From: Isurus oxyrinchus
Lineage: Eukaryota
NCBI GenBank assembly: GCA_026770705.1
Contig: JANJGN010000034.1
Span: 7,254,001-7,318,000 of the forward strand
Reading direction: 5' to 3'
DNA: 64,000 nucleotides
Shown here piece after piece: positions 960-56,391 of the stretch. Position 1 is the stretch's first letter. Every line of letters begins with the position of its first letter. The notes under the pieces are model-generated. The model was given only the letters and a program-made list of their open reading frames with translations, was not told the DNA's origin and made no database searches. Made by a program: the position numbers and the translations under genes.

Positions 960-986
960 AAGATCAGCTGAAAGGAAAAGAAAAAG
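960..986 (+). CDS. Microexon 1 (27 nt, A-type): (E)DQLKGKEK
   Basis: ttttactccttgacag|AAGATCAGCTGAAAGGAAAAGAAAAAG|gtgagt. The first residue depends on the unseen upstream exon. Confidence 0.88.
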
Positions 987-3900: not shown

Positions 3901-6900
3901 AATTTTGTCATTTTAGACTTTTGAATTACTAAAGCACGCGTTTCCTTTGTTTTCTGTTTAGAAATTGTGGACTTTCAGGAGAAATGCAGTAAGTATTAGA
4001 TGACTCTGCAGCTCTCGGAATGTAACATTAGGAACGGCGGAAATTACTGGGTACGAGTTTTCTGGTAGAACTGATTTGGTTAAACTGGACTAAACTGTGA
4101 CCCTGAGGAAATACCCTGAGGTAAAACCACTGAAGAAGTCATTCTTACTAGAGGCTGAATACTCCAACTAGAAATGGCGGAGATCTTTGCTTATCCAAGA
4201 GCCTAAACTAGTTTCTGGACTTTAGTATTCTCATTTGCTTTTCGTGATACCGAACGAAAGCCACATATAGTCCAAGGATCCATGTGCATTGGTTAGACCA
4301 CAAATGTGTTATGCACACACCTAATCCTCATATGTAACAGAGGCGGAAAATGCTGGAAATATTCACCTGGTAACGAATCATCAAGGAAAAATAAAAAAAA
4401 AATTAAAGTTTCAGGTCGATGAGTTGACAAGAGATGTATCAAATGTCATCGACTTGAAATTTTAACTAATTTTCTCTCTCAACATTTGCTACCTGACTTG
4501 CTGGCATTATCGTTCTCTTCTGTTTTCATTATTTTCTGCTTTCGTACTGCTAATATTATTCTGCCTTTACAGCATTCGCAGGATGATTTTTTTGATTTGG
4601 CTCTAGTTGCTATATGCTTTAGCAGTCCACATGTGGAAAACTGGGAGTAGTTTTGATCGCTATTCAGCTTCCTTAAATCGCACTCCGTGCCCCGGGGACA
4701 GTTCTGATCTCCAGTTCCCTTGGTCAATCTATCTTAGAATAAAGTGTACAGTCCTGTTCTACATAATACAATAAGGAGATATGGACAGTGCTGCAAGTGC
4801 AGTGAAAGCTAAATGAGATAACGTAAATGAGAGATTATAACTAACTGGAAAGTCTGAACAGGCTGGGCCTCGTTACTCTAGAATTGTAAAGGCTGAAAGG
4901 TGAACTGTCAGTATTATTTGAAGTAACGTAATTGTTGTATAAAGTAAACCTAAAGAAGGAATTTTCATTTATTATGGAGTTTAAAAGTTTCATTCACTAA
5001 TAAGCCAAATAGGAAGTGAAATTCACCCAATGTTTTAATTTTTACTCATATTATAGTTAAAATGATAAATGTTCTAACATAACAATCGTTTAGGTGAATG
5101 GCATAGATGCATTGAACTAAGACCTGGCTAAGTTGGATGGCACAATGCATACAAAATAATGCTAACATAATGAGCGAGAGTGGGGGGAGTGTCATCGGTG
5201 GCCTCAGCACTGACAGAGAACAGGTATTTCTGAAAGTTTGTGTACAACAAATGCCACTTCATAAGGTTAACCTCACTGCATGGGACAGCAGACACTTACA
5301 GTTCATAATGGGTACAGTTTGTCTGGTCGCGTTTTGAAGATCACTTCCTTGTCGTTCTGACCAGAAATAGCCTTTGGGACTGCATTGAGTGGCACCAAAC
5401 TTGCCCAGTGGGCACATGAGGCGGACTCTTCCATTGGCATTATGGCGAGTGACGGGTGACAGAATCTTTGCTTTCCTTCTCTTTCAGAAGCTGATCTGGA
5501 GCAAAAGGATTCACGTAAATTGCAGGAATAATACGGATGAATGGCTACATTGTCGCGGTCCATCATTATGAAAGACATGCTAAATTACTGGTTCTCTCAG
5601 GTGGATGTAAAATATCCCCCTCCTCCGGCGAGCTTTAATAAAGACATGCGTAGATCAGCGCGCTGTCCTTTGTTAATAAGTGCCCATCAACAAATAAATG
5701 AGAGGCAGTGTATCTGGATGAAAACAGGCTGTTGTTCATGGCAGCCAGTTGAGTGAAAATTAGCTGCAGCCTTTGCCAACTTGCTTTGAAAACTGAGGTA
5801 TAATCAATCATTAATTTTTATGTTCGATCCTTCTGAACGTCCTGAGGTAGTGAAACATTCAATGGAATCGGATATTCCATGAATTATCAGGTTGCCGGAA
5901 CAGGACAATGGGATAGTTGACATTGCTGCTGTGTGACAGCAAGGATTATTCCTCAACTACACAAGAAGATAAGAAGGTCAGAACCATTCAGCCCCTCGAG
6001 GCCGCTCTGCCATCCAATGAGATCATGGTTGAACTTATAATTCAAGGCCATGTTCCTGTGCTATCTCCGTGTTCCTTGATTTTTTGTTATATTTAGAAAT
6101 CCATCAATCCCAACCTTGAACATATTCAACCACTGCAGGGGTAGACAATTCCAAAGATTCAACACCCTCTGAGTGAAGAATCCCTCCTCAGTTCAGCCCT
6201 AAATGGCCTGCAATTTATTATGATATTGTGTCTTCCGGTTCAATACAATCCCCCACCCCCACACGCGCTCACACACACATAAACTGTACAATTGCCAAGA
6301 TGGTTTCGAGAACAAGCACTGCCATGTGATCGATAAATTATGTTTTGTTCCGATTTTCAGAAAAAAAAGTCCTCAACAACAAAATTCAAGAATTAGGTGA
6401 GCAAAATACTCTTCAAAAGTTACGGAACACATTGGTCGGACGTTGGACTTATATGAAACTTTAAGTATTAAATTTTTAATTTGTTCTTGCGGTTAAAACC
6501 ACTAAGGCCAGTGCTGTAATGTGATACTTCACTTTGCTGTCGAGATCGATTTGTTTAGGTTTTCAGTCAAAATGATATCCTGTAAGGACATGGCCAGTTC
6601 AGAGGAGACCGGACATCCGAAATCTCATTGATGTGTCAGACTGATTGTTAGTGTTTGTGTAAAAGCATGAGAGCATGTGTAGGTGTGACAAGTCATGAGT
6701 GAGATTAAATATGGCTGAGATCAGTTATGGGTGAAATGGCGTATGGGTGGGATAATTAATAGATGAAAACGTGCATCGGCAAGTTTGGAATAGAATGGGA
6801 TTCAGTTTTGCTGATCATACTTATGAATAGCATTAAATATGGTTTGGATCTGGAATATTTGAAATTGTGCACATTTCAGATCAAGAAATGTTGATGTTCA

Positions 6901-9900: not shown

Positions 9901-12900
9901 AGGTGGCTGCAGAGGTCAACAGTGTGGATGTTGTGAGGAGGATTTGGTTCCAATTCCACTAAAGATTATAGAACTTATGAGCTTGGCCTGGCTAGGCACC
10001 ACATCAGGATGAGCAATCTTAATTCATTTCAGCACTACCCTGACTTTCAACGTGACAGGCATTGGTTGGCCTCCATGCAGCTCTATAAGATCCTTTTGCC
10101 TAGCGCCATTCTCCCCGTAACCCTGCACATTGTTTCTTTTCAAATTTTGTATCCATGTTGCTACTATCCCTTTAGGCAATGAGCTCTAACTTAGCTCACA
10201 CATCTGTTGTCAAGTACTTTAGCAAATGCGTTTTGCAACTCAATGTACAGCACATTTTTTCACCTCATTAAAAGTCTCAATGAAGTAAGTGAAATACGAT
10301 GTCACCCTAAACAATCCACCTTATTTTTCCTTCATTCACCCATTTTTCCCAAGTGAATACAAATTTAAGCACGAATTATTGTTTCTGAGATTGAGGTTAA
10401 ACTGACGATTGTTTAATTATTTGAGTTAACCTTCAGCTCTGTTAAAAACCATTTGCAATTATCCAGTTTCCTGGCACTATCACTGAGTCAAAAGATGATT
10501 TCAAAAATATTGATACTGCCTCTGTTATTACCACTTTCACTTCCTTCAGTTTAGTTGTTATCTTACCTGTTCCTGGCCCCTTGTCCAATTTAAGCAAAAG
10601 ACTGTATCCTTATCGATTTTAAACTGTCTAGGTCTCTGAAATATATTTTTTTCACAATGAACTTCTAAACATCCTCGTCCTTGATAAAGGCAGCTGAAAA
10701 TAATTCGTTATTAGTCTATGCAGGTTAGCGGGCAAACCCTTCTTATACCTGCTCTTTACTTCCTTGTTTCCATATTTTTCCAGCCTGCCTTTGAAAATGT
10801 TATATTCGGCCTGGTTTTCAACTGTATCCTTCGCCTAATCACGGCTTTAACCTTTTTTTCCTGATTCGTTGTAAGCTCTATTTCTTCCATCTCTCAGGAA
10901 GATCAAGAATATTTTTACCTACCTTTCCCCATCGAGGGAATAGACGTTGACTGTAATTGAACTCTATCTTATTTAAAAGCAGTTGATCGAATGTTTACAG
11001 TTTTACTGCAAATCTTTGAATCATTATTTTTTTTCTTGACCAGATCCATTCCTGCATCACTGAAGTCGTTTCGTCCCCCAATTAATAACTGTTGCTCTGA
11101 ATTGATCCAGGTCCGATGTCACCGAGGTATTGAACACATTAAGGAGGGCAAAAAAGGCAGATAAAGTTAAGCCACTACCACTGTCTAGCATTACAGGCAC
11201 CATTGAAAAAAATAGATGGACAGCTCTCAGGAGTGACATTAGCGAACATTTCGGCACAGAGCACATAGTAGAATTTTGGAATCCCTTTTCTGAACTGACA
11301 GTTCAATTCAGGCTAACTGCTTTGACTCGACTTGTAATTGATCGATTTTTTCATTGCAATCCAGGGTATAAATGGGTATGGGCCAAAGGCAGGAATATGG
11401 AGTTGGCTAATGGGGCAGCCATGATCTCATTAATTTTAGCATCAGGTTCTAGGACTAAATTATTTACTTTTATATACCTAGTTGTGAGCTGCACTCAATG
11501 TTAGTGTTTAGCTGAAATGCTGACTACAGTTTTGACAATGATAAATGTTGCATTGAACATTCTGCAAACTTATCTCTCTGTACATGTTCCTGAACTACAC
11601 AGAAAAAACAGTAAATGGTAAGGATGTACAATTCATAGACACTTGGCTTCTAAACGTAGGAATATGATATTAACGCAGCAATACTACTTGAGCAGAATGG
11701 TAGCAGCACCAGAGTGTGCGCCCGGTTGATTTATGTTTCTATTAAAGATAGCAATGCTAAACTTTGAGCTGGAAAAAACAGGATTGTTTGGTGAAATGTC
11801 GTCGCTTTTATGGCAACAGCTATGATGTAAATTTCTAATTGTTCCCCTTCCATGCGTGAGTTGCACTTGTAGCCCAATAAACCTCCGTTTTCTTGTTCAT
11901 ATTTTCCTGATTTACACAGAAACTAACCAAAATCGTTTTTCCCTTCCCATTTTGAACGTTCCTATTTGTAGAAAATCACTTCATGTCTCAAATCTCGTCA
12001 CCTGACAATGATAAACCTGTCTTCCGTTTGGCCTTAAGTCTATCTGAAGATCTAATGACTTTTTTTCCTCACAGGTGCAATTTTCATAAACTCCGAATTC
12101 CACGATTTTCTTTCTATCAAAAATATTTAGATAGGTGATAGAAATCTACCGCTCCCAAATTCAATCTCCTTGTCTTAATCCTTGAATTTCTGCGGTTTAT
12201 CTACAAGTCTGTTCAGACACATGCCTAGCCTATTTTAATATATTGGAAATTCGGGGTATAATGTTAAATTCAGAGCTAGGCCGTTCGTTGGTGTAGTAAG
12301 GAGCGCCTCATCGCACAAAAAATAGTGAAAATCTTGAAATTCGCCAAAAAGGCGTTCTGACTAATGTTCAATCGAAATATCAAAATGTGACTGATAGATT
12401 TTTACTCTGCCCCACTATAAGGGGGTGTTGAACACAGTCGGCTACTGAAGGCTAACCTGAATTTGTCTCTAATAGAACGATGGAACATGAAGGGAAAGCA
12501 AAATACTCCATACATGTTCGATGTGCCATTCAGTGGTTTACCAGGATATCTAACCAACACTGTCCTTCATGATTTATTTTTCTCCTTTTGCAATCTATAC
12601 CTTCTCTTCCTTTTATATTGACTTGGTTATACATTCTATCAGAGAACTGTTTTAAATTCGAAGCTCTTCATTCACCATTCAGAATGAAAGGGTTGCATTA
12701 GTTAAGTGTACTAACGCGACACTATTTCTGATGAAACATGTGTTGCATAATTTACCTTATAATTATTGTTTCTGCCGTTATTGTTCCAGAATGCAAAGCA
12801 AGGGAAAAACTTGACAGTAAGAAATTACATGGCTCAATACGAGGTTTCGTATTGTAGTGAAAAGTCATGGAATGCAACCATGAAATGAAATGTTCACTCA

Positions 12901-39900: not shown

Positions 39901-42900
39901 GCATCTGATCCCAGTCCGATCACTTGTCAACCTTTAGTAGAAGCCATTCTAATGCCCCGGCTTTTCAATTCTTAACTGATATCGTTTTCAACCAATCCTG
40001 CTTCTATTCTGAAGCATCTTCTCCCTTGTTATTAACAAAAACATTGCAGCATCTTCTCCCTTGCTATTATCAAAAGCAATATACTTCTTTAGAGCCTCAG
40101 TAAAGCGTTCTGACTCGCTGCATAGAATCTTGTTGCTCTCTAGTTGAACGCGTTCCGACGTTCAGGGCATCTGAAGATGTTCATTTCAATAGAAAACTTT
40201 TTTGTGTCCCTTTTATGTTGATTGTGACTCAGTTTTCACCGTTAACTTTTGCTTATTTTCATAGTTTCCAATTCCCACCTGATTTCATATAATAAGGCTC
40301 ATTCAGACTTTAATGCCATTGTGACATCTCCCATCAGCACAGTTTACTTTGTTTCATCTTACTCTCTTAGCTCCCTACTATTCCAGTAAATATTCAGATA
40401 ATTATGATCTCCCATTTTCACTACTTCATTGTTATAGCTCGTCCTGTAATGTGTTGCTTCCCTGTCTTTCCTGAAGTGCCTGTATCTGGGAATATTTGTT
40501 GCCTATCTCTGTCCTTCCTTGAACCATACCTCTGTTATATACAATATCAGATTTCCACATAGCAATGTGTGCCATTAATGAATAAACATTATTTACACAC
40601 TCCACACATTAAGACACATAGGCGTTGCCCCTCATTTCAATTTACATTTTTCTAGTATATGATAAAGGATGAAAACATCTTTATGTAATGCATTTGTCGA
40701 GTCTCATTATATAGTTGTTCAATTTAAACACCATTCAATATTTACCAGGATAGTCCCCGAAATTACTCCTTGAAAACTGATCTCACTAAACATTTTTTGA
40801 TTAAATAGTCAATGAAGCAGCAGGAAGTTAAATGAGGAGATGCAGTGAATGTTGAACTTTAGTCAGCCGTTTTCAAAAGTTAATATATTTATTTATTAAG
40901 GACGGGGGGGGGCTGATGTTTATATAACCTTGATGGAGGCAGCATATTTTATGAGAGGAGTTTGGAACCCAAGTAAGATAGTGACCATGGTAAATAGAGA
41001 AAGTGAGTATTTTTTGCAGGGAATTTATGTGAAACTTCGAAAAAGCTCTGATTGTGCTGCAACTAGGGCATTGCCTCCAGTTCTGGTCAGCAGCATTCAG
41101 GATGAATTCAAGTGTTCTGTTAAGGATAGAGTGGAGATTTACCAACATGGCTCCAGTGATGAGGGATATTAGCTGCAATATCGGGTTGGAGAGTGTGAAG
41201 TTGTTGTCCTCGCAGCAAAGGAGGTTAAGGGGAGATTTGGCTGGGGTGTGCAAGGTTATTGAAGCGTTGAAAAGCTTAGACTAATTGTTCCAATTTCCTG
41301 AGTGTACTGCAGTTGTCAATTCGTGGTTTTGGAGAAGAGACTAAGAGGCAGTGAAGAAGGGCATTTTTTTTTTTCAGAGCGAGTTTGAATGACCTGGAGT
41401 TCACAACATTTCCATGTGATCTAATTGGGGAAGATCAATGGCTTGGAAAAGGAAATTGCACGGGCACTTAGGAGAAATAAACTTGTGGGGCTACAGAGAT
41501 TGCGCTGGAGAATTAGCTGACTGGATTGATCAACAGACAGTCGCGTTGGACTTGATGGTAACAATGGCCTCCTTCTGTCCCCTGATCATTCTTATTGTTC
41601 AGAAATTCCAAACAAGAGGAATTTTTTTTTTTAAATTCGGTCATGAGATGTAGGCATTGCTGGCTAGGCCAACAGTTATTGCTCATCCCTAATTGCCGTC
41701 GTTCTGGGGCATTTAGGAGTCGTCTACATTGCTGTGGTCCTGGAGTCACGTGTAGGTCAGTCCAGGTAAGGGCGACAGATTCCCTTCCCGAAGATCATTA
41801 CAGAATCACATTTTCTTCATAGCAATCGGCAATGGTTTAGTAGTAATCTTCAGATTTTTTATTCAATGTTTTAATTGAACTTAAATTGCACCTTCTACCA
41901 TGGTGGGAATTGAACTTCGGTCCCTAGTGCATTCTTCTGGGTCTCTGGAATTCACGTCCAGTGATGATAACATTAAGGCTAGAGTTTTGAAGTTGAAGGG
42001 CGATACAAGGAAGATTTGGAAATAAAACAATAGTTCATATAAATTGTCGAACGTCGAATGGAAAGATATGCAACGAGGCCATTAAGTCCATTGTCCCTAT
42101 GTGTGTCCTTTGATAAAGATTTCCAATTGGTCGCAATTCCCTTCTCTTCCCACAAAGCAATTACTTTCTCCTCAGGTTTTTCAATGATCTGATGAATCTT
42201 CTTTTCCCATGGTTTGGTTAAGTGAAATCCAGATCACATCACCTCGCTGCTTCAAAAAATCTGTTCCTTCATAACATGTCTGTTCTTTTGACTTAATTAG
42301 TAAACTTACACCCTCTTCGTGCCGACTATTCTGGCATTGGACTTTTTTTTAATTAAACAAATCAAATCCTTTTATTATTAAAAATAACATTGTTTCTCCT
42401 TTTGAAACTATTCCGTTTGAAGGACCATAATCCCCACTACTCCAACGTGGTCACATAACTGATGTTTCTCTACGATGGTTCAATTGAACTCCACTTGCAT
42501 ATTACTATTCCCAGGTCGTTGACATCCTCCTTAGAATTTAGTACCCACCACTGAAGTTAGTCCTGTGTTTCCCTTAGGATACGGTATCTTCAGAGAAAGA
42601 GTCCAGGAATCCTTGAATTCTCTAGTGGAATGAAAATGTTCAGGTGATGCCATTGAATGGCTTTTGATGGATTGTTTTTTTTGTGAGATAAGTTTATTAA
42701 CATGACAGAACCAAGACTCGTAGTTGGATCCAGCAAGATGCAGCTGAATCGTGGAAATGCTCAGGGAGCATGATGGACCATTCATGTTCCTCTGATCGTT
42801 GTGATTGATGTTTGTGGTTTCTTTCACGTGACAGAATTGCAGAAAATGAGGGCGAACTGCCAAGAACATGGTTAGTATAATGGAAATTAATAAATTTGAC

Positions 42901-45900
42901 AAGTGATGGTTATCTCATTTTCTGTTTCCTCATTCTTACATTACCCTGTGGAAAGTGCCAAATTGGGGATTTTTATTTGTTTAGTTTTCTGTAATTATTT
43001 TTCAGTACAATGTATATGTTTCTCTAAGGTCGCTGCACATTCTTTATACAAAAGGCATGACAATATGTAAATTGTTTAGCGTCACGAAAGTCACTGCTGC
43101 ACTTATCTAAATCTGAAAAGCTCTACATAATTTACCGAATACTATATTTCCCATGAGCAATTACATATAGTGCACGGTGTACATCCAGTAAACATGTAAT
43201 CTGTCTCAAGGACAATGAGGGATAGGCAATAAATGCTGGCCGAGCAAGCGTTATCCACATCCTGATAACAAGTATTTTTTTAAAGACATTAATCCAACTG
43301 CCATAAAATCGGTCAAACGTTTATCAGCTATTGTTCAAGTCAAGACACATCCACGTCGACATAATCAGACACCCAACCACTGCCTAAATGCATTACTTGC
43401 TGAAACCATTTGTAACCTTGAAGCCATCCAAGGCTCTGCTGCTCACATCCTAACTGGCGCAATCTCTCATTCATCCTTCACTTCTTCATTCGCTGACCTA
43501 CACGGGTTATCTCTAAGGTAACTTGCCCATTTTAAAATGCTCATCCTTATTTTGAAATCCCTCCATGTCCTCACCATGGCCATTGTAAATTCCTGCAATC
43601 GACAACCCTCAAGTAAGCGTGTGTTGTTAGAATTGAGACAATTTCAGCACTACCGAACCTGATTTCTCCACTGTTAGTTGCCATGCCATTAAGCCACTGG
43701 GATATCAGATCTAGAATCACGTCCTACAATTCTCTGCCTTTCCACCTCGCGTTCTGAATCTTAATGGGCTTCTCCATAAAGTATCATATACCCTGATGCC
43801 TCCTTATTGAGCCACTGTAACACCTTACTTATTGAAAACCATTGAATTTGCTTCATAATTTTAATTTCACATTACAAATGAAATGCAGATTGGTTTTCTT
43901 TTCGGTTCTGATACGAGTCATTATTTTCATGGACTTAATAGAACGAGAATTGACCGTGAAAAATGAAGGTAAATACGACAACTTATGATATTTTTGCCAT
44001 GCTTTAATTCATTGTGAGGCTGGCACTGGACATGGGTGGTGCCTCAAACCGCATGCGTTATTCAGTTACATCGAACTCAACAGGAGCTGACGGTAGGGTC
44101 AGTGGTGCGTGGAACCATTGTTTCTTTCGTACTGATAATGATTCCGTGCCAATCTTATCGGCATGCCAGTTTCAGCTGCATATTCAGCAAACACTCAGCA
44201 GCTTATTTGGCGATTTTCATTCTTCTTGTTTCTTTTGTTCACAGAAACACGGAAACTAAAAGTGGTGCTTCTGGATTGTGGTGCGTGGATGGGATTGGAT
44301 TTGGGACTCCACACGATCAATGATCTCACTGATACATCAATATCCATGCTCAAGAAGCATATTACGTGCAAAGTGGTAGCGGGATGGTGGTGGATAATGT
44401 GTTGATAGAGCAGCTGTATTTACTTATCATCCACTTGAATGATGAACAGAAATGCGGAGGGATAAACGGCAATATTAGAAAATACAGCAAAACAACCACG
44501 TCCGGACCAAATTCCTTTCATCTTTGTATGATATTCAATTTAATTATCTTCAGTGCAAGTGAATCTACGGCACAGCATAATACTGTTGTAGATTAGATAA
44601 CTTCTGTCTGATACTACAATCCATGACAAATTTCCAACACAGAAAACTCAACAATTAACATAGCAATATCAAGATATATGCATGCGTTATTTTAGCTTAG
44701 GTTTCCGAAGTGAATATGCCACAGACGGATAAAGCTGCTACATTAACCAACGCATGCTGATTGACTTTCCATTTCTCATCCTCTCTGAAGGCAGAATTAT
44801 CTATCAGAATCAAAGCAGGAAAAATACAACCTGGCTAATTAGCGTTCCACTGGTCTACGCGCGATCATCAGTAAAGTAATGGAAGGGGTCATCAACAGTG
44901 CTAAGAGGCAGCCAGCACTTGCTTAGCAACAGCCTGCTTACTGACGATCAGTTTGGGTTCTGCCAGGGCCAATCAGCTCCTGACCGCATTAAATTCTTAA
45001 TTCAAACATGGACAAAACTGCTGAACTCCCTAGGTCAGGCGAGAGTGGCTGCCTTTGACATCAAGGCCGATTTAACTGAGTGTGGTATCAAGGTCCCTGA
45101 CCAAATCTGGAGTCAATAGGAATAAGGGGGAAATTATCCACTAGCAGCAAGGAAGGTGGTTGTGGTTGTTGCAGTTCAGCCATCTCAGCTGCAGGACATT
45201 ACAGCCGGAGTTCCCCCGGTTAGTGTCCTCGGCCAAACCATGTTCAGCTGCTTCATCAATGACCATCATAGTATCCGAATCGGGGATGTTCGCTGATGAT
45301 TGCAAAATGTTCACCACTATTCGTGGCTCCTCAGATACTGCAGCAGTCCATGTCAAAATTCAGCAAGACGTGGTCAATAACAAGGCTTGGACTGACAAGT
45401 GGCAATTAACATTTGCTCCGCACAAGTATCAGGCAATGGCCATCTGCAACAAAACAGGATCCAACCATTGCCGCTTGACGTCCAATGCCATTACCATCAC
45501 CGAATCCTTCACAATCGGCAGCCTGGGGGTAACCATTTCCCAGAAACTGAACTGAGCTAGCTATGTAAATACTGTGGCAACAAGAGTAGGTCAGAGGCTA
45601 GGTGTCCTGCGGCAAGCAATTCACATCCTGATTCCCCAAAGCCTGTCCACCATCTACAAGGCACAAGTCAGGAGTATAAATGAATACTCTCCATTTGCCT
45701 GGATGTGTGCAGCTCCCACAACACACAAGAAGCTTTGCAACAGCCTGGACAATTCATCCCGCTTGACTGGCATCACATACACAAATATGCACTCCCTCCA
45801 CCATCAACGCACAGTGTGTTCCATTTACAAAATGCAAGCAGGAATTGACCAAAGGCCCTTCAACATAACCTTCCAAACCCATGGCCACTACCATCTAGAA

Positions 45901-48900
45901 GGACAAGGGCAGCAGATAGTTGGGAGCACCACCACCTGGAAATTCTGCTGAGAATCACTCACCATACTGGCTTGGATATATTTCACTGTTCCTTCACTGT
46001 CAGTGGGTCAAAGGTCTGGAATTCCCTTCCTAACATCACTTTGAGGCCTACCTACATCATGTAGACTGCTGTGGAGCAAGAAGGCAGCCCATCCCATCTT
46101 CTCAAGGGCAATTGTGGATGGAGAATAAATGCTGGCCTAGATTGCAAAGCCCATATCCCATGAATGAATAATTTTAAAAAAATCTCAATGGAACTGCTAC
46201 AATTTCACTCAAAATGAACGAATTTCAGGTGTGCGCAGATGCAGCATTCTGACAATGTGGTTAGAACGCTTCCCTTGGTGATGTTATTCCTGAAATAGCT
46301 GGAATTGCAAATAGGTTGCAGCACCAAAAGGACGATTTAGCCCAACTGGTGCATTTATGCTCCACATAGGCCTCTCCCCTCGCACCTCCATTAAACCCCG
46401 TCAAAGTATCCGCCTCACTGCTCATATATTTATCCAATGTCTTCGCCATCAGTTTATAGCCGTTATCAACATTATGGCCCCCGAGATAGAAAGTCATGGT
46501 TTGCTGTCACAGTGCAAACCTGGTGAGCAAACGTCTTGCTGAAATTCCCCATTGGGAGGAGAGGGGAATGGTGCACTCTCTGAAGTTAAACTGAATCATT
46601 GCCGTCCTCTGCAATGGATATTAAAGTTCGCACTCAGTTATTTACAGTATGCAAAGTATACCCGCTAGTGTCTTGGCTCAGTGTATCCCTCAGCCAACAT
46701 GTCAACGCAGATTTGTTTGTCATTAAGACATTCCTGTTTGTGGAGCATTTTGGCTGTCATGCTTCCCAAACTACAACAGTGAATGCACTTCAAGATACTT
46801 AATTGACAATGTAACTTTATAGTGTTTGTTGGCCATATATTTATACGGCAGGAAAGCCAGTGTGAAAAAATCAAGTTCTATACTTCTTTCCTTAGAAAAA
46901 TTATCTTAAATTCACATGTTGCACTCAATTCCAGATGTATGATGGTGCCTTGGTTGCTCCTCCACCTCTGCATAAAAAAAATTAGGTTGAGGCTCCATTT
47001 TGCGCCATTATAGCCATGCAAATGACCTCATCACGTTGCAAAGCAGGTGGGTTATTAGCCTTTAAGTCATTCGAATATGCCGGATGGCAAGCGGTAAGTG
47101 CGTGAGAGTTTCCTGGTCAGCCATCCTGCAGAAAGCAATGGCAAACCAATAAAGTCCTTTATCAAGCATTATGATGGACCAATCCAATGGAAGACATTAG
47201 TTGTCAATACCCTCTTAAGGCATGTAACTTCAGGGAGAAGCATGGACTTCAATCAATCCATTAGGCAGATTTAGACATTTCATCACTGCTTAGATAATCT
47301 ACTTTCTGCAGAATCCCTTATTGAGTTATTGAATGTCTGACCTATATTTGTAGCGTTAATTTTAGGCATCCAACAATCAAACTATCGTGTTTGATAGCTT
47401 AAACTTTCACAGTGTTAAAGTGCTTTATCAGAGAAACTTTTATCCTTCTCTGTTGTATAACAGGGAAGAATTCTAACCTATTGTCCCTTTCCTGATAATT
47501 ACAAACTTATACTTTTCCTGTTCTCGTAAGCCCATGTAAACCCAAAAACTGTTTTCACTTATGTTGCTCACAGAGCAAAAACTAACCAAGAAAAATGAAG
47601 GTAAGTGAATGACTTGCATTCAGTTTATGGGACATATTGAGGATTGAAATCTATTGACAGTGAAATTCCCCAATTGCCATTTAGTTTCGTTGACGTTAAG
47701 TAAATTGAATATCTGTAGAGGAGCACAACAGGCGTCAGATGTGCTACCACCCTTTTAGCGCTATGAAACGACGACTTTCAATGTTATTATTAATTGATGA
47801 GGAAATGCTTTCCCCATTTTAATATCATTAGGTTCAATATCTCATAATTTGGTGGCTAAACTTTTGGGAGGCAAGGATGTTGAGGGCTACAAACAGAGAC
47901 AATTCAATGAGAGCTCAGTTATAGGTTAGCCAATGTCGAATTGAATATCTTCCTCCGTAACCTCTTCAGCGCGAAGACTGCACAAAATATTCTCGCCATG
48001 ACTCCAATATCCCTTATAGTACTGTAACATATACAGTTAGACTCCACTGCTCAATCACTGTAAAATGTTTAGTCAGCAGAGTGGGAAGTGGAAAGATTTG
48101 AAAGAGGATACAACAAGAAATATGCTAACAAACCAGGAAAATCTGTAAAATGCATACAATAATAATGATGAGGGATGTCAGCTACATAGAAATTTATTGT
48201 TTTGAGAAGTGGGCATTTAATTTATCTTAATAATATAAACATTGGAAACAAAAACCCAATTATCAAGTTGCTGTTCGAGACTAAATCGGTGGTGATAGAT
48301 GTGAATTGGCCATATAATTGTCAGAGCAATTTCAGCATAAAAAAAGTAGAAGGTATTATACTTTGGTTATACAAATACAGAAGTCATATATCCCTTGAAA
48401 AGAAAAGCTACATGAGGCAGAGGAAAAGAGGGGTGTGAGGCTAAAGATCCTTGAAACTTCGAGAACAGTTGCTAAGACCATTAACAATGCGTAGCAAGCA
48501 CGGGTCATAATGACTACATTAATGGAATTGACAGGTATAGTGCTCAGAACACATTGGGTTGAACTCCTGATTCAACCACACTTAGCATTCTATGCAGAGT
48601 CCTGCATTATGCATGCAGAATACCATAAATTAGAGCATATCACTATCAAGAAGGATGGACATTTTTTTTTTGTTCTGTTTGTGAGGTGCTATAATAGGCG
48701 TATTTGAATTATGAGGTGGCATCGACAGAATAGCCAAGGAAAAGAGTTTTCTCTTGGGAAGAGTGAAAATAGAGCCAACAGCACAATATAACAATCAAGA
48801 AAGAAATAATGCATTCAGAAAATCGGCCTTTACCGAAAGAGTCGTGATAATTTGAAACACCGCACTAAAGTCATTAGTTGAGGCGAATGGCACAATGGTT

Positions 48901-51900
48901 TTAGGGAAAGCTTCAAAAGTATGTAAGGGCCAATAATTCAAAAGCTATACCGATAGAGTGAGATGAGCAGTGACGGGTGGAGATTTGTGTATCGAGCGCA
49001 TATTAGTATGGCCTGGTCGGGTACAGTAGGCTGTATTTGTGCAGCCAACACAAAGTAGCTTTCATATAATTCCGTTCTGTAACCATTCATCTTTTAAGAA
49101 CAATTCTTCTCATCCTTCCTCTCCCATTTTCTCACAATTATGTTAAATGCGTATTCTCAGTTACTGCTCGTTCCCTTGGATATGCCAACTCAACCTACCA
49201 GAATCTTATCCCTCCAAGGAAAAAAAAGAACATAACTTTTCTTGGAATCCATGTCACCAAAGACGTTCATTCCTGGTGCCATTAAATTAAGACTCCTTTT
49301 GGCAATATCTACGAAGTATTCTTAAAGGGTGATACCCAAAGGCATACATTTTACATCTGCGCAAGTCGAACCAGTGATTTATCACCGTTTCGTATTTCTC
49401 ACAAAATGATTCTCACATTTGCTCGCAGAGATGGTGAAAATGAAAGACAGCATTTCGGAATGTGGTGAGCTATATAATTTTAGGTTATTTTCCTTTACTA
49501 TCAAAGCAATTACCACGTTCATTGATCTCACGTTTATATTACCCAGATCTTTCCACAGCAGCTCTATCTCCTGCACAGTTGAAAGGCTGGTTATCTATTT
49601 GTGCTGCTTGAAATCTGTGCATGTTAACGTTACCTTGTGATCCATTCCATAGTGCTCCCACTCTTATCTCTGCGAGGAGAGGTTGTGCATTCAAGTACCA
49701 CTTTGGTGCTCTGACCTCTATAATCCAGGCAGCCAATCCTCGTCCTGAGCAGCCAGGAATTGTTGCCTTGGTGGGGAGACCGTCTTCCATCTCAAGGTGG
49801 ACATATAAGATCTCCAGGTGTCAATTCATAAAAATGCAGGGGCTACTCTGCTCTGCCTTATGCCAATATTTATCAACCAGCGTCAGTAAAGTGCATTTTT
49901 TATTCAGTATCCCATTGTTCTGCGAGGCCTCTTACTCTGGTAAACTTTGACTCCTATTCCCTGGTTTAGAAAGGTGCTATGTTCGTTGTATGAAATGTCG
50001 TAACATCCTCAACGCAAAAGACGCAAAATGTATCCAAGCATTTCTATTATAGAAAAGCATATCCATTCATATACAGGCTTCAAACCATTGGCGCAATTTT
50101 TGGTGGCTGATAATTCTTGCCAGTGACATGATAAAGAGAGACTGACGTTTAAATTGCGCGTTTCACTGCTCCGGGATCTAGCAAAGCTCTTTTTGACAAA
50201 TTTGTGCACAGCTCAGTGTTACCTGAATGCGATAATGCGAAGATGCTTATTTTGTCCCCTGTTCGATTATTGGAAATGTTTGCTTGGAAAAATGGGGAAA
50301 CAGCAGTAGAATATAGTGTTGTATGCCCACCAGAGAAACGACAGGTAGTTTAATACTTGTCAAACTGCAGGCAATTTCAGCAGGGCAAAATTGCATCATC
50401 AGCTTCCACTTTACTTCAAAGCTCTGGAGTGGGACTTCAGTCCACAACCTTCTGACTGAGAGAGGAGGAACCTGCAAACTGAGATATTGCATGATCACGT
50501 CATCCCTTCTAGGATGATACTCTCAATAGCTGATTCTAGAGTTTGGTTACAGAAAAATGAGACCATATTAATTCATGACGTAGCCCTCACCAAAACATAT
50601 GTAATTTATATTAATGGGTAAATTGATGATGCAAAAATTACACATTGGGAGTGACTACACGATGTCCAATAAGTTAGGAACCGCACGTTTCACGACCAGC
50701 CTGATATCCTTTTCAAATGTAGTTAGAAGGATCGAACATTGAGTTGGGATTATGTTTAGGAACCGAAGATCTATAGCCCCTGTATCATTGCACCCAAGAT
50801 AAGTGCCCTTCGCTGGTGTGTTTTTCCCCCAATTAGGCTGTTATTGGTATTCTTCATTATGTTACTTACTAATTACTCTAATTATGTTGCTTACAGAAGA
50901 AAAGTTAAAGGTCAAGCAGAAAGGTAAATATGTGTGTATGGTTTCATATCACAACAAAAAAACAGATTGAGTGAGATGTTTAAAAAAAACGGATTCATAA
51001 ACATGAGGCCAGAACTGAGACGTTTCATGTATACAGGGGTAAGGAAATTAGGAAACGAAGTGAAAAGACTACAGGACGACCTAGAAATACTTGCAAAGTG
51101 GACAGGCACATTCCAGATTTTTTTTTGTTAAACACACTACTGATACAATTTGGTTGCAATGCTGCAGGTGTGCTGTATCAGTGAAATGGGGTCCAGGCAC
51201 ACAATTGCTAGTATTGCATGACTGGATAAGTTGTGCATACCGAATGAAGTAATACGAAATAAGAATAGGCCGTTACAGCCCTTAGATCCAATTCCACGTT
51301 TCAATAATACCGGGGCTAACTCTCTTGCTTAATTTCAACATCCAGTTGCTTTTGCAGTTTCCCACTTAACTTCAGAGGCCCACAAGGCGTTCAGTGAAGA
51401 TATTTAATGTAAGCTGTCTCATCAATAACCAAAACACATATTGCATTTCTCTACCCTATGCTCTAAACTTAATATGCGCCATATTTAAAAGCAGATCAGT
51501 AGCTCCAAACTTAGCCTAACTACGTTTATTTGGGGATTCAGCTGGAATGAACTGCTATTCACACAAAGTCAATGAAATCCATTGGTTACATTCTTACCTC
51601 GTACAAAGGAATGTGCTTGTGGTTATTGGAACCAATAATTTCATGCAAGAAATCACTCAAGGAGTTCTTCAGAGTAGTGTCCTCAGCCCAAGCTGCTTCA
51701 TTCACAATATACATTCCAGCATGTGTTCAGAAGAAGGGATTTGGACTGATTATTACAGGGTTTTCTGTATTATGAGTGACTCCTCAAATACTGAATCAAT
51801 CCTTGCCACATTCAGAAAGGAATGTAAATATTTCCGACTTTGGCTGCCAAGTTGCAAGTCACATTCATGTTCCACAGGTCAGCCAATGGACATCTCTGAC

Positions 51901-54900: not shown

Positions 54901-56391
54901 CGTGTTACCTTCAGGGCACATTGCAGCAATTCACCAAACATCGTTCAACATAACTTTCCAAACTCGAGACTTCTATCACTTTAAAAGGCAAGGGCATCAA
55001 ACCAATTGGAAGACCACCAGCTACCCATTCCAGATTTAATGACAGTCCTCGGTCCATTTTTAGCCCGGACCAGGAATCACAGGTGCAGCAATCGAGCTTC
55101 ACCTTGTGCAATTTGTGCTATTATCCATCTCTATATATGATGACTTGATCCGCTCGGGTTTGTCGTCCTCCTCACTCAAATGGTGGCCTTGGCTTCAGTG
55201 ATCGATTCTGCAAAACAAAACCCCGCTGTCCCCAACCTCCTTCCAAGCTCGAAGCCATCCACACATTATGATGTCTCACGTCTCTTCTACAGAAGTGGAT
55301 AAACTGAAGAATGATCTTGAAGATTGTGGTAAGTAGAAAAATATTAAATATTACCAACCACCAGGGGCAAGTCTTAATTTTCTCCAGAAAAGTAAACTAA
55401 GTTTATAGTCCAGGATCTTGCTATTTGACTGAAATAATCTAAATCAGAGTTTATGCTCCACACGAACCTGCTGACACACAACCTCATCAAGGCCTATCAT
55501 CACTGTCATGTAAACCCATCAAGTCATTTCACCCTCATGTGCCTCTAATTCTGCCTTGAACTCATGTTTCTTACTACCTTTAACTATCGCATGTTCTTAA
55601 CGAATTCTATGTTTTCATCAACTGCTATATAAATAAACATATCCTCACTTTGGCATTTATTGACTAACGTGTGCACATAGTACTTAGATTTGGGCTCTCC
55701 AACCAATGTAAATTTTTTCCTAACTCTTCTCGTTTTGGCTATATTTCTGTGAACGATCTTCCCTTTGTTCGATTAAGGAAAAAACGTCTATATCTCATCT
55801 TACCATCATTATTTTTAAAGAAAATAAAAGCAATGCAATTAAACATATTGTTGACGGAGAGCCTTAAAATAAACACAACGAAGGATCAATCATTATGATG
55901 CTAAATGATGTGACTTAATATCGCTTTTGATTATGGAGAACGATGACTTGCAATAGCACAGATTCAATCGCCTTACTTGGGAATCATAGATCCTTACAAC
56001 AGAAAATTAGACCATACGGTCTCTTGAACTTAACTTGTTCTTTGGAATGATGTCGCATTAACACAGTGCTTAGTTCTTTCTGAATAATCATGATCATTTA
56101 TCTCCATCGATCCTTCAAACAATCCATGAGGAACAAAGAAAGAAGAGGCGACCATTCACACACTCGAACCTGGAACATCATTCAATTAAAATTGCTGACC
56201 TATGAATTAACACATTATACAAGCCGTTATCCGATTTCTCGTAATGCAACTGAAAACGGGCGCGGGTAGTCTACTAAGCACTTTTATGCCGTTCAAGATA
56301 AACTTTTACAAAACTATTTCATTAATAGTGTTTTATTATTCACCCATCCGTCATATTATTTTAGTACTAAGGATCGCCAACAAACAAAAAG
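960..56391 (+). CDS. Internal part of a microexon-encoded coiled-coil protein gene (21 exons, 627 nt, 209 codons; start outside the window, end not identified)
   Basis: 21 short segments with pyrimidine-rich ag acceptors and gt donors; lengths are all multiples of 3 and all phase 1-1; the joined frame has no stop and shows 3-4 hydrophobic heptad spacing. Family not determinable here. Confidence 0.9.
2650..3720 (+). mobile_element. Degenerate non-LTR retrotransposon (CR1/L2 group), RT C-terminal part and 3' end
   Basis: Colinear similarity to the copies at 44840-46180 and 52080-54820 (e.g. 'gaccaggaaattaactgggccagcca', 'cttttgtactcggaaatatattcgctgtccttc'-like 3' region). Confidence 0.7.
3962..3988 (+). 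CDS. Microexon 2 (27 nt, shortened B-type): EIVDFQEKC
   Basis: tttgttttctgtttag|AAATTGTGGACTTTCAGGAGAAATGCA|gtaagt. Confidence 0.88.
4340..4600. mobile_element. Short Penelope-terminus-derived remnant
   Basis: 'aaaatgctggaaatattcac' faces 'tgctacctgacttgctggcatt...ttctgttttc' in inverted orientation; the same terminal motif occurs at 29005 and 32440. Confidence 0.5.
5488..5514 (+). CDS. Microexon 3 (27 nt, A-type): KADLEQKDS
   Basis: ctttccttctctttcag|AAGCTGATCTGGAGCAAAAGGATTCAC|gtaaat. Confidence 0.85.
6361..6396 (+). CDS. Microexon 4 (36 nt, B-type): QKKVLNNKIQEL
   Basis: ttttgttccgattttcag|AAAAAAAAGTCCTCAACAACAAAATTCAAGAATTAG|gtgagc. Confidence 0.87.
   Translation, partial: KKKSSTTKFKN
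6620..8060. repeat. Degenerate G/T-rich repeat region interrupted by a minus-strand CR1 3' fragment (about 7180-7810)
   Basis: Recurring 'gatcagttatgg' and 'gtctgttatggtt' motifs (6719, 6991, 7985). The CR1 fragment begins 'catagaatgttgtggcacagaaccaggcc'. Confidence 0.45.
8440..10020 (+). mobile_element. Decayed PIF/Harbinger DNA transposon (HARBI1-like transposase fragment)
   Basis: ORF 9335-9760 'RRKLRLSR...GSHPMPAALKVKMTVNLIAT...LLTDASFQRTGNNTSF' resembles the N-terminal HTH region of Harbinger transposases; CpG-rich 5' subterminal region. Confidence 0.75.
10040..11130 (-). mobile_element. Highly degenerate CR1 LINE fragments
   Basis: Reverse-strand CR1 remnants ('ttctccccgtaaccctgcac', 'ctgagattgaggttaaactgac', 'catttgcaattatccagtttcctggcac'). 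Confidence 0.55.
11603..11617 (+). CDS. Microexon 5 (15 nt): EKTVN
   Basis: ttcctgaactacacag|AAAAAACAGTAAATG|gtaagg. Weaker acceptor, but with exon 6 it makes 42 nt (two heptads) and continues the L-I-L-V-C 4-3-4-3 spacing. Confidence 0.68.
12790..12816 (+). CDS. Microexon 6 (27 nt): ECKAREKLD
   Basis: tctgccgttattgttccag|AATGCAAAGCAAGGGAAAAACTTGACA|gtaaga. Confidence 0.85.
13170..14265. mobile_element. Non-coding Penelope-derived element with inverted termini
   Basis: 13190-13450 ('...ttcagagctgacgagacgtagaaatg...ggtggagcaaaataatggatcagggatagg') is approximately the reverse complement of 13980-14260 ('cctatccctgacctattttgctccacc...ttctacgtctgttcagctctg'). Confidence 0.7.
14290..15830 (+). 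mobile_element. Second, more decayed Harbinger-type element
   Basis: Colinear with 9150-9840: 'gagtataaaggcagagacttagct' vs 'tagtatacaggcagagctttagct'; 'cagatgcctgtcccattgaaggtcaaa' vs 'cccatgcctgccgcattaaaggtcaaa'; 'cagggtcagatggatagagcc' vs 'cagggtcaatgggtagatcc'. Confidence 0.65.
15915..16330 (-). mobile_element. 3' fragment of the same CR1/L2-group LINE, reverse orientation
   Basis: 'ttctttcatgggatgttggcgccgctggcttgaccagaatttatt' is the reverse complement of the family tail 'aataaatgctggcc..cagcga.gcccacatccc'. Confidence 0.75.
16567..16593 (+). CDS. Microexon 7 (27 nt, A-type): NEEAREKNS
   Basis: cccttataacttacag|ATGAGGAAGCACGGGAGAAAAACTCAG|gtaata. Confidence 0.86.
16730..17060 (-). 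mobile_element. Deu-domain-like tRNA-derived SINE remnant
   Basis: 'gtgcttttgaagtgtagtcactgtt' and 'gtgggttgtgagcccacggactttccgctctgaggc'; recognised from known shark SINE motifs, not from a search. Confidence 0.5.
18009..18044 (+). CDS. Microexon 8 (36 nt, B-type): EIMALNKNLQGA
   Basis: ttcatttattcatcacag|AAATAATGGCTTTGAATAAAAACCTACAAGGTGCAG|gtgaga. Confidence 0.88.
19450..19735. repeat. Imperfect inverted repeat (arms about 70 bp), probable MITE
   Basis: 'atgcaaatgatgtacacgtg...aaagccgcacgtgaccagcag' (19462-19523) vs 'ctgctggtcacatgctgcttt...acgtgtgtgcatcatttgtat' (19662-19717). Confidence 0.65.
20140..21990 (+). mobile_element. CR1 LINE, 5'-truncated, with internal deletion of the RT core
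   Basis: ORF 20596-20979 'KSPGPDNLHP...WSIANVTPLFKKGSREKTENYRPVSLT'; ORF 21485-21832 'YEERLSRL...RRMRGDLIETFKIL...TRGHSLR'; CR1 3' UTR 'ggccgaatggcctactcctgctcc'. Confidence 0.92.
22150..24540 (-). mobile_element. Decayed Ty3/Gypsy LTR retrotransposon (gag-protease region)
   Basis: Minus-strand fragments 'LEDQLHLKLNFRIHRLELRVCRQQLQQSIDQLIS', 'ISELFIASTRIELSQKEL' and 'KLITNNDSHIHCFGTL' resemble vertebrate Gypsy gag-pro; many stops and frameshifts. Confidence 0.6.
24560..24800. repeat. G/T-rich low-complexity tract (GGTG/GGTT/GGTA degenerate)
   Basis: Read directly. Confidence 0.7.
25397..25423 (+). CDS. Microexon 9 (27 nt, A-type): EEKLRQKQK
   Basis: aatctgcttttaacag|AAGAAAAACTACGACAGAAACAGAAAG|gtaaca. 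Confidence 0.88.
26922..26957 (+). CDS. Microexon 10 (36 nt, B-type): EMDSLKGFLAQC
   Basis: ttacccaattttcag|AAATGGACAGCCTGAAAGGATTTCTTGCTCAATGTG|gtaaga. Confidence 0.9.
27230..27675 (+). mobile_element. CR1 LINE 3' fragment
   Basis: 'ttggaactctcttcctcaaaagg...tttcaaggcaaatctagatag...gatggagcaggctggaacggacaagtagccttcttctgctcc'. Confidence 0.75.
29005..32990 (-). mobile_element. Near full-length, inactivated Penelope-like retroelement (RT + GIY-YIG) with direct terminal repeats
   Basis: Minus-strand fragments 'IPFLDFSVSLSGDRLSTNIHYK..FHSYLAYSSSHP' (RT thumb) and, near 29790-29830, 'GLLYIGETRHRLGDHL' (GIY-YIG). 29005-29550 is repeated in the same orientation at 32440-32990. Confidence 0.88.
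33105..33180. repeat. Imperfect (ATT)n microsatellite
   Basis: Read directly. Confidence 0.85.
33480..33506 (+). CDS. Microexon 11 (27 nt, A-type): EANLKEKSK
   Basis: cattctcatttattgatag|AGGCAAATCTCAAGGAGAAATCGAAAG|gtattg. Confidence 0.86.
34030..34390 (+). mobile_element. CR1 LINE 3' fragment
   Basis: 'cctgggatgagcgggttgcaatatga', 'cagggttgtgaatctggagtt', 'tactgaatggc...cctcctgctcc'. Confidence 0.55.
35364..35399 (+). CDS. Microexon 12 (36 nt, B-type): EIETLKGQLSDA
   Basis: gtctttcctccccag|AAATAGAAACATTGAAAGGTCAACTGTCAGATGCAG|gtgagt. Confidence 0.9.
36970..37335 (+). mobile_element. Deu-domain-like tRNA-derived SINE, ending about 110 bp upstream of microexon 13
   Basis: tRNA-like head 'cagccttggttaagttggcagcactatcacccgtgaatca', then 'ggctgaaacttc...gtactgctgcgct...gtgctgtcatttaggtgaaac'; recognised by motif only. 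Confidence 0.5.
37444..37470 (+). CDS. Microexon 13 (27 nt, A-type): GKAFKDKEA
   Basis: gttcttcttcctttag|GAAAGGCTTTTAAGGATAAAGAGGCTG|gtaagt. Confidence 0.9.
38425..40330 (-). mobile_element. Degenerate CR1 LINE, reverse orientation
   Basis: Begins 'cataggatcatagaatggctacagc' (reversed 3' tail); ORF 39445-39645 'KSYLTYFIDL...IDVMYPDFQNLFGKV' resembles the CR1 RT 'KSCLTNL...DVVYLDFQKAFDKV'. Confidence 0.75.
40950..41600 (+). mobile_element. CR1 LINE 3' fragment
   Basis: ORF 41054-41284 'HCLQFWS...IEWRFTNMAPVMRDISC...QRRLRGDLAGVCKVI'. Confidence 0.8.
42835..42870 (+). CDS. Microexon 14 (36 nt, B-type): ELQKMRANCQEH
   Basis: tttctttcacgtgacag|AATTGCAGAAAATGAGGGCGAACTGCCAAGAACATG|gttagt. Confidence 0.86.
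43942..43968 (+). CDS. Microexon 15 (27 nt, A-type): ERELTVKNE
   Basis: ttttcatggacttaatag|AACGAGAATTGACCGTGAAAAATGAAG|gtaaat. Confidence 0.86.
44245..44280 (+). CDS. Microexon 16 (36 nt, B-type): ETRKLKVVLLDC
   Basis: ttcttttgttcacag|AAACACGGAAACTAAAAGTGGTGCTTCTGGATTGTG|gtgcgt. Confidence 0.87.
44820..46185 (+). mobile_element. CR1/L2-group LINE, RT plus 3' tail
   Basis: 'DQFGFCQGQSAPD...VAAFDIKA', 'GMFADDCKMF', 'STIYKAQVRSINEYSP'; tail 'aataaatgctggcctag...cccatatcccatgaatgaataa'. Confidence 0.9.
47574..47600 (+). CDS. Microexon 17 (27 nt, A-type): EQKLTKKNE
   Basis: cacttatgttgctcacag|AGCAAAAACTAACCAAGAAAAATGAAG|gtaagt. Confidence 0.9.
48400..49050 (+). mobile_element. Very degenerate CR1 3' fragment
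   Basis: 'ctgattcaaccacacttagcattctatgcagagt', 'gaggcgaatggcacaatgg', 'tagtatggcctggtcgggtacagtaggctgtattt'. Confidence 0.45.
49429..49464 (+). CDS. Microexon 18 (36 nt, B-type): EMVKMKDSISEC
   Basis: tctcacatttgctcgcag|AGATGGTGAAAATGAAAGACAGCATTTCGGAATGTG|gtgagc. Confidence 0.89.
50897..50923 (+). CDS. Microexon 19 (27 nt, A-type): EEKLKVKQK
   Basis: attatgttgcttacag|AAGAAAAGTTAAAGGTCAAGCAGAAAG|gtaaat. Confidence 0.89.
51550..51925 (+). mobile_element. Older fragment of the CR1/L2-group LINE RT
   Basis: ORF 51547 'HWLHSYLVQRNVLVVIG...QGVLQSSVLSPSCFIHNI'. Confidence 0.7.
52070..54825 (+). mobile_element. Long CR1/L2-group LINE (endonuclease remnant, RT, 3' tail), frameshifted
   Basis: 'ggacttcaatatccatcacc' (GDFN-like), 'SIISKVMEVVI', 'GVSQVSVLHPTTFNCFINDLP', 'VMEYCPLVCM'; tail 'aaataaatgctggtctagccagcaacgcacccatccc'. 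Confidence 0.9.
55293..55328 (+). CDS. Microexon 20 (36 nt, B-type): EVDKLKNDLEDC
   Basis: cacgtctcttctacag|AAGTGGATAAACTGAAGAATGATCTTGAAGATTGTG|gtaagt. Confidence 0.9.
56365..56391 (+). CDS. Microexon 21 (27 nt, A-type): VLRIANKQK
   Basis: tcatattattttag|TACTAAGGATCGCCAACAAACAAAAAG|gtaata. Confidence 0.84.

Follow-up and report, generated by a model that had tools for sequence, protein, structure and literature searches.

A predicted megabase-long microexon gene in the shark Isurus oxyrinchus, with a coiled-coil rod and a terminal B30.2 domain

The microexons of a 64,000-nucleotide stretch of Isurus oxyrinchus DNA (the window; positions 7,254,001-7,318,000 of the contig carrying it, C34, in a genome of 4.98 Gb) are the middle slice of a far longer gene, termed here unit B, which lies at ~6.45-7.50 Mb on C34 and is 1.04 Mb long. 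It is very probable that unit B is a giant gene joining a rod to a B30.2 domain, the chain of exons and its splicing having been deduced from the sequence. This microexon gene of ~1 Mb, with its coiled-coil rod and B30.2 end, probably represents a cartilaginous-fish family whose products, likely secreted, act as oligomeric spacers of tunable length with ligand-binding heads. An earlier note had described the same microexons as a gene of 55 kb and 209 codons, dimensions that had to be given up once the exons were found to extend on both sides, through the ~1 Mb of unit B.

The microexons of the window

The window contains 21 microexons on the plus strand, twelve of 27 nt, eight of 36 nt and one of 15 nt, which total 627 nt (Table 1). 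AG and GT borders are present on 21/21, all exons are in phase 1-1 and strict alternation of 27 and 36 nt begins at exon 7; the joined 627 nt have no stop in the phase-1 frame, against 17 and 18 in the other two. Recomputation thus returned these features as the earlier note had claimed them. Splice matrices that were approximate and written from general knowledge gave 20 of the 21 exons on scanning, and the 21st, at 33,480, was found by reading 26,800-35,500 by eye. A candidate at 30589 was rejected as exon 11 because it sits in a stretch missing from the paralog, unit A. That stretch, 3.6 kb at window 29,536-33,155 with a strong G skew, is probably a retroelement insertion.

The joined peptide is rich in K (20%), E (16%) and L (11%) and has a hydrophobic period of 3.5. 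In its alternating part heptad position a is hydrophobic in 91% of cases, while d cycles through K, L and C/A. The period and the a/d pattern together indicate that each 27 + 36 nt pair makes three heptads, in support of the two-exon unit of 9 + 12 residues proposed earlier.

Splice candidates on the plus strand numbered 12 of 27 nt and 8 of 36 nt, compared with a mean of 1.3 per other length; the Poisson chance of the two spikes, with the approximate matrices, was 1.5e-8 and 6e-5, and although the two lengths were picked post hoc p was still <0.004 after a x52 correction. The minus strand gave 0 candidates of 27 nt and 1 of 36 nt. One of the twelve, 35949, contains a stop and does not belong to the set, and the true member at 33480 falls under the splice-score cut-off of this test. 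Several of the exons have weak splice scores, which is what can be said for their being chance matches or dispersed repeats, but length spikes on one strand, a single open frame, the heptad period, exon-specific conservation and selection on splice sites leave that explanation a negligible probability. The reality of the window microexons can hardly be doubted. When contigs from one DNA set and three presumed RNA sets were aligned to window 37300-57000, an alignment swamped by repeats, no joint at an exon boundary appeared among the 15 listed of 1,447. Contig depth marks 45,200-46,500 and 53,000-55,000 of the window as very high-copy interspersed repeats, and a 17-bp tandem repeat of 3.4 copies (97% matches) occupies 724-780.

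Table 1. Rod exons of the window (window positions) and features of the related units (positions on C34)
Feature	Position	Strand	Remarks
Rod exon 1	960..986	+	27 nt, phase 1-1; AG/GT counterpart in paralog A
Rod exon 2	3962..3988	+	27 nt
Rod exon 3	5488..5514	+	27 nt
Rod exon 4	6361..6396	+	36 nt
Rod exon 5	11603..11617	+	15 nt; identical in paralog A; together with exon 6 gives 14 residues (two heptads)
Rod exon 6	12790..12816	+	27 nt
Rod exon 7	16567..16593	+	27 nt; start of strict 27/36 alternation
Rod exon 8	18009..18044	+	36 nt
Rod exon 9	25397..25423	+	27 nt
Rod exon 10	26922..26957	+	36 nt
Rod exon 11	33480..33506	+	27 nt; weak splice scores; 26/27 identical with AG/GT in paralog A
Rod exon 12	35364..35399	+	36 nt; identical in paralog A
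Rod exon 13	37444..37470	+	27 nt
Rod exon 14	42835..42870	+	36 nt; missing from paralog A; run X1 DNA contig spans 42567-43039
Rod exon 15	43942..43968	+	27 nt; missing from paralog A
Rod exon 16	44245..44280	+	36 nt; missing from paralog A
Rod exon 17	47574..47600	+	27 nt; missing from paralog A
Rod exon 18	49429..49464	+	36 nt; X1 DNA contigs cover exon, 4 listed differences
Rod exon 19	50897..50923	+	27 nt
Rod exon 20	55293..55328	+	36 nt
Rod exon 21	56365..56391	+	27 nt; gene runs on downstream of window
Unit A ATG-bearing exon, end	4,846,548
Unit A Phe-rich 30-nt exon	4,852,725
Unit A 111-nt exon	4,859,457		only other genome copy at start of unit C
B30.2 relative, unit A end	6.396 Mb		92% identical to unit B's; open frame in both
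B30.2 relative, unit C end	4.817 Mb		58% identity to unit B's
B30.2 relative, minus-strand unit	3,474,122-3,474,636	-	45% identity to unit B's
B30.2 relative	2,708,644-2,709,132	-	45% identity to unit B's

Extent of unit B

Upstream of the window the same classes of exon were found throughout the 200 kb read, and downstream they extend for ~175 kb, to about C34:7,492,660. A trained exon caller, which recovered 15/21 of the window exons, made 133 calls on the plus strand of the 442 kb read contiguously, 0 of them with stops, and 0 calls on the minus strand. Together with the manual window exons and intact homologous copies these calls bring the count in the 442 kb to at least 148 microexons. 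A further 514 kb of the unit was sampled in five 10-kb pieces at 6.6-7.0 Mb, which held roughly 2-4 such exons each, continuity of the array between them being assumed. The start of the unit, at 6.459-6.54 Mb, consists mostly of 21-nt exons, the first at 6,459,146-6,459,166. By extrapolation the whole of unit B would have 300-400 exons and 3,000-4,000 residues; the 148 counted exons alone are calculated to make a coiled coil of about 220 nm.

Coding sequence accounts for 0.89% of the span. A multi-megabase cluster has been largely missed by annotation because its coding share is <1% and its exons are of 5-12 codons each, and, should splicing follow the predicted chain, unit B by itself would be among the most exon-rich of vertebrate genes. 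A joined rod of 1,317 residues has no TM-like stretch (maximum KD19 0.35) and no enrichment of N-glycosylation sequons (4 vs 3.9 in shuffled sequence); Cys makes up 3.6% of it, and 34/48 of the Cys sit in an L-x-x-C core motif. Young internal tandem duplications occupy C34:7.01-7.17 Mb, where one exon region is present in 17 copies of 84-100% identity, and the same block also contains repeated copies of a 27-nt AG/GT candidate, which differs in composition and was excluded from the exon count.

The terminal exon and its neighbourhood

The last exon of unit B is a phase-1 exon at C34:7,496,442-7,496,962 that has a stop, with two AATAAA signals about 660-680 nt beyond. A look-up returned no RNA record for this exon and its 3' UTR, which weighs neither for nor against expression. 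Pfam identified it as SPRY (3.4e-12) with PRY undetected, and a structure model of the exon (mean pLDDT 67.6) matched the B30.2 domains of TRIM7, TRIM21 and BTN3A1 with E about 1e-10 at 22-25% identity. Closure of the gene by a B30.2 exon agrees with the architectural analogy to BG antigens and butyrophilins that had been drawn from the window exons. Five related B30.2 exons, that of unit B included, lie on C34, and microexons were found in samples to precede those at 6.396, 4.817 and 3.474 Mb, which define units A and C and a unit on the minus strand. Microexons of the minus strand at 3.90-3.99 Mb begin head-to-head with unit C, within about 18 kb. Beyond the C34 cluster B30.2 matches had at most 42% identity and were mostly on C21, where most of the 150 B30.2 exons listed form a large cluster at about 82-118 Mb along with BTN-type IgC exons, an ordinary TRIM/butyrophilin region.

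Genes with Ig domains adjoin the cluster. Just downstream of unit B a single V-set exon at C34:7,513,578-7,513,928 (Pfam 1.2e-10), whose motifs we take to be of nectin/PVR/TIGIT type, is followed by a TM-like exon at 7,524,026-7,524,148 and belongs to a separate, TIGIT-like gene; it was rejected as an ectodomain of unit B, being downstream of the gene and having its own TM exon. An IgV copy at C34:6,424,337-6,424,690, near the 3' end of unit A and in the same segmental duplication, is broken by a stop and frameshifts (77% over 92 aa) and was likewise rejected, as a broken copy of the neighbouring gene. On the minus strand at C34:7,545,686 a 261-nt phase 1-1 exon of Ig C2 appearance suggests a neighbour of Siglec/CD22/CEACAM type.

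Selection on the microexons

Comparison of the window with unit A aligned 17/21 exons, with an identity of 454/501 (90.6%) in exons vs 84.7% in introns (Fisher p=1.3e-4). Splice bases were conserved at 68/68 positions, gaps were found at 0/501 exon positions vs 768/52,118 intron positions, and dN/dS was about 0.55. Exons 14-17, absent from unit A, sum to 126 nt or six heptads, so that frame and register survive without them; their loss from A is preferred to a gain in B since no source copy was found within 464 kb.

Within unit B, both AG and GT are intact in 97/100 duplicated exon copies vs ~68 expected from flank divergence, length is kept in 100/100 and there are no stops, counts that come from copies sharing a history and so not independent. 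The flanks of 99/100 copies are at least 86% identical, which places these duplications after the split of A and B. The exon bodies are barely more similar than their flanks (91.3% vs 89.6% in the main class). Preservation of splice sites and length with little preservation of sequence indicates that selection bears mainly on splicing, frame and length and less on sequence, which would be expected of a spacer. The three copies that have lost the GT donor (7,386,090; 7,399,325; 7,401,414) belong to one duplicated block, and one of them carries GC instead and is possibly still spliced. The neighbourhood supplies a control: decay has overtaken the duplicated IgV exon at 6.424 Mb, whereas A and B both have open B30.2 exons.

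5' ends and the loss of leader exons

Scans for Ig-pattern exons found none at the 5' end of B (6.4335-6.459 Mb), at that of A (4.818-4.876 Mb) or in the interval separating C from the minus unit (3.976-4.026 Mb). Nor was there a credible internal TM exon at the 5' end of unit B, or a TM exon ahead of A, C or the minus unit. None of 37 genome matches to the BTN-type IgC domain (PF22705) fell within C34 2.7-7.5 Mb, most being on C21, and exon scans of the B, A, C and minus-unit 5' ends, made without a RING profile, showed no RING or B-box exons. The earlier note had suggested inspecting the flanks for signal peptide, IgV, IgC, TM, B30.2 or lectin exons. Of these a B30.2 exon and, in A, a predicted signal were recovered, but Ig, TM and lectin exons were not. 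Its receptor stalk or tail with an Ig, TM or C-type lectin part therefore finds no counterpart where A, B, C and the neighbouring minus unit begin, or in a last exon that is B30.2.

Three 5' exons of unit A (Table 1) can be read as a split signal peptide of about 18 residues, a prediction judged by hydropathy only. Its hydrophobic core, like that of a skate model, is of about 12-14 residues and ends in small residues. No hydrophobic exon was found for unit C, and the splice sites of the candidate in the minus-strand unit score poorly (-1.3 and 0.3); apparent hydrophobic peptides translated from polypyrimidine tracts were not accepted as leaders. Database models from skate and elephant shark have hydrophobic N-terminal starts (KD10 3.3 and 2.7), but a strongly hydrophobic start occurs in only 3/9 family models examined, one of which may be intron read-in. 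The elephant-shark model XP_042192744 has a basic cluster right after its hydrophobic stretch, a configuration that would also suit a rod in the cytosol held by a membrane anchor, and the short N-terminal hydrophobic stretch of unit A could itself be such an anchor.

An anchored protein would be an ectodomain-less cortical scaffold of butyrophilin/BG type, with a cytoplasmic coiled coil and a cytosolic B30.2 domain, and unit B would be its soluble cytosolic form. This is thought unlikely. The basic cluster, the lack of sequon enrichment in the rod and the fact that unit B exons stay under selection though the leader has gone are all in keeping with it, as are the intracellular position of butyrophilin B30.2 domains (excerpts of PMC12841164) and the displacement of tropomyosin by a soluble BG tail (excerpts of PMC5938342). 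However, a core as short as that of A and the skate model, ending in small residues, resembles a cleaved signal more than a full TM segment, and the Cys content of the rod, concentrated in L-x-x-C, suits disulfide cross-links. Secretion of the family is the preferred reading and a reasonably probable one, with hydropathy as the basis for the signal peptide.

Unit B has diverged from this arrangement. Its flank at 6,433,690-6,455,835 aligns with A 4,827,827-4,850,373 at 76-83% and then jumps to A 5,091,193, so that in this assembly unit B is without ~241 kb relative to A, both leader exons included. The ATG exon is kept at 6,452,560-6,452,589 and is 29/30 identical to that of A (p about 0.01-0.05), and no replacement hydrophobic exon was seen. 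Disappearance of the signal exons, and of the GT donor from 3/100 copies, all within 7.386-7.401 Mb, could mean that unit B is a recently disabled member of a real family, a pseudogene that has not yet decayed after losing its leader. This is distinctly improbable given that 97/100 copies are intact, that 133 calls contain 0 stops, and that the B30.2 exon is open and followed by poly(A) signals and the ATG exon so nearly identical to its counterpart.

Relatives in other cartilaginous fish

A HMMER scan of 1.84 billion representatives with the B30.2 query found its best single-domain matches in cartilaginous-fish models named TRIM39-, TRIM69-, TRIM58-, A33-, butyrophilin- or nuclear-pore-anchor-like. 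The family models, from skate, catshark, ray and elephant shark, are automatic and mostly partial, named by similarity and seemingly never studied, of 175-1697 aa (XP_042192744, 'nuclear-pore anchor-like'; XP_055510696, skate; XP_038668997, XP_038672306-10, XP_038671249, XP_069775384-90, XP_042191566-8, XP_060706632, XP_078422387 and GCC29436). No RefSeq/GenBank relative more than 54% identical to the unit B B30.2 domain was found. Protein searches with the B30.2 exon gave 1 match among 610 longer candidates (29%) and 2 among 20 of near length (54%), and an alignment search among proteins of up to 2,000 aa gave 15 matches, one of them in the coiled-coil + SPRY family. Pfam returned only SPRY on 10 family models, plus one sub-threshold PRY, and no RING or B-box.

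A quick maximum-likelihood tree of 68 B30.2 domains, midpoint-rooted, without bootstrap and with rows chosen from hit lists and all 68 kept, placed the three tested C34 domains and 12 selected top matches (2/12 with no organism on record) on one side of a branch with SH-aLRT 100, and 53 TRIM, butyrophilin and other domains on the other. The unit B domain and those of the 11 Ig-bearing proteins included fell on different branches. The rod sits on a B30.2 lineage common to sharks, skates, rays and elephant shark, and the earlier attribution to a cartilaginous-fish gene is probably right.

The layout of rod and SPRY is found in XP_042192744 (1697 aa), whose rod matches the profile of the 36-nt exons with 4 hits, a number reached by 0/200 shuffles. 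The profile match was clear for 2/6 tested segments, residues 330-900 of that protein and catshark XP_038672306; with two further chondrichthyan segments and a second part of the elephant-shark protein it was borderline or fell short of significance; a bowfin control gave 0 hits. A genome search with the N-terminal 384 aa of the elephant-shark model gave no match, and short-word tblastn with two family N-termini returned noise only. Between isoforms of the catshark, ray and elephant-shark models the differences are blocks of 6 or 9 residues, which is what skipping of microexons would produce; these RefSeq isoform models presumably rest on RNA. Chordate clusters of 1,277-1,802 aa in the ESM Atlas were also matched; their automatic names carry PRY/SPRY and isoform numbers, and they are possibly an analogous giant rod-B30.2 design elsewhere.

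In the literature searched, to which most subscription journals did not belong, no paper on a cartilaginous-fish coiled-coil + SPRY family was found. The gene had been put forward as undescribed, which holds for that literature, but RefSeq does contain automatic partial models from skate, catshark, ray and elephant shark, and their TRIM39-, A33- and butyrophilin-like names appear to be wrong. A catshark semen proteome, as given in excerpts of PMC11083954, had 0 family matches; it was itself searched against UniProt Chordata and so is uninformative.

The extreme length of the rod, its Cys at position d and a constraint weak on sequence but strict on length would also be expected of a secreted structural fibre (egg case, mucus or seminal gel) in which the B30.2 domain is an end domain for assembly or cross-linking and not an immune head. 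Such a fibre seems unlikely, as short family members of about 200-450 aa exist and the cluster, with its birth-and-death duplication, adjoins nectin/TIGIT-type and other Ig genes.

A proposed mechanism

For the secreted, length-tunable spacer the following course is envisaged. Chains would zip into a parallel coiled coil and the Cys at every third d position would cross-link them outside the cell. All exons being in phase 1-1 and each 9 + 12 pair making three heptads, skipping, duplication and deletion keep both frame and register, and rod length may be set by exon skipping or splicing and by tandem duplication. Paired B30.2 heads could then bind a surface or microbial ligand with avidity; a role in innate-immune or mucosal recognition is the favoured guess, though it falls short of being likely. 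Unit A, which has the leader, would make a secreted rod. Unit B, unless recently disabled, likely makes a leaderless cytosolic rod or contributes exons spliced behind the leader of A as an alternative 3' end, splicing from A to B being conceivable because all exons are phase-compatible.

An extension of this last possibility, tentative and rather unlikely, is that units C, A and B (4.0-7.5 Mb) are one or a few giant splice-compatible loci in which a single leader would serve several hundred, or as many as about a thousand, phase-1 microexons and any of three B30.2 exons could come last. The products would then be a repertoire of secreted disulfide-linked rods of tens to many hundreds of nm, and cartilaginous fish would have a class of protein with more coding exons than titin, which has 363. 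The cluster makes it possible to test how proteins change in length through the number of their exons, how microexons are recognised when hundreds of introns separate them, and how a paralog may move to another compartment once its leader exons are lost.

Comparison with known systems

The RefSeq/GenBank models of the family share the B30.2 clade of unit B and consist of coiled coil + SPRY only, but they do not capture the megabase exon array. The names of these models derive from TRIMs, and TRIM proteins (TRIM7, TRIM21, TRIM39) do have a coiled coil followed by B30.2; the family differs in having no RING or B-box in the scans, a predicted hydrophobic leader, a rod built from microexons and an undetected PRY. 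CD23/FCER2 and CD209 are type II membrane proteins in which a few exon-encoded coiled-coil repeats serve as a spacer for a C-terminal C-type lectin head. Unit B resembles them in holding a C-terminal head on an exon-encoded coiled-coil spacer, but its repeat unit is split over two exons and its head is a B30.2 domain, with stop and poly(A) signals, and not a lectin. A precedent for a secreted protein with signal peptide and B30.2-like domain is provided by ohanin/vespryn of snakes, with a precursor of 190 aa (excerpts of PMC5384570), which has no long rod; no venom role is implied for the shark family.

Butyrophilins have been reported in cartilaginous fishes, and the layout of IgV, IgC, TM, heptads and B30.2 is described for squamate and human (excerpts of PMC12841164). 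Mammalian BTNs have few heptads ahead of B30.2 (excerpts of PMC5938342). Unit B is like them in passing from heptads to a C-terminal B30.2, the modelled fold of its terminal exon being like that of BTN3A1, whereas no IgV, IgC or TM was found in it, its B30.2 is on a separate branch and its heptads are not few. The tail of a chicken BG antigen is a coiled coil encoded by 27-37 exons of 21 nt that follow the signal, IgV and TM exons, and its exon number varies by gene and transcript (excerpts of PMC5938342). Both BG and unit B build a long coiled coil from many small heptad-sized exons, and unit B even starts with a block of 21-nt exons. BG has signal, IgV and TM exons and no B30.2 end, in contrast to unit B, in which no Ig or TM exon was found and B30.2 is last, and the exons of unit B are mostly of 27, 36 or 15 nt and about ten times more numerous. 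Unit B therefore works like the tail of BG and butyrophilins without being a member, no Ig or TM exon having been found, and it scales their heptad-exon principle about tenfold with a module of two exons and three heptads.
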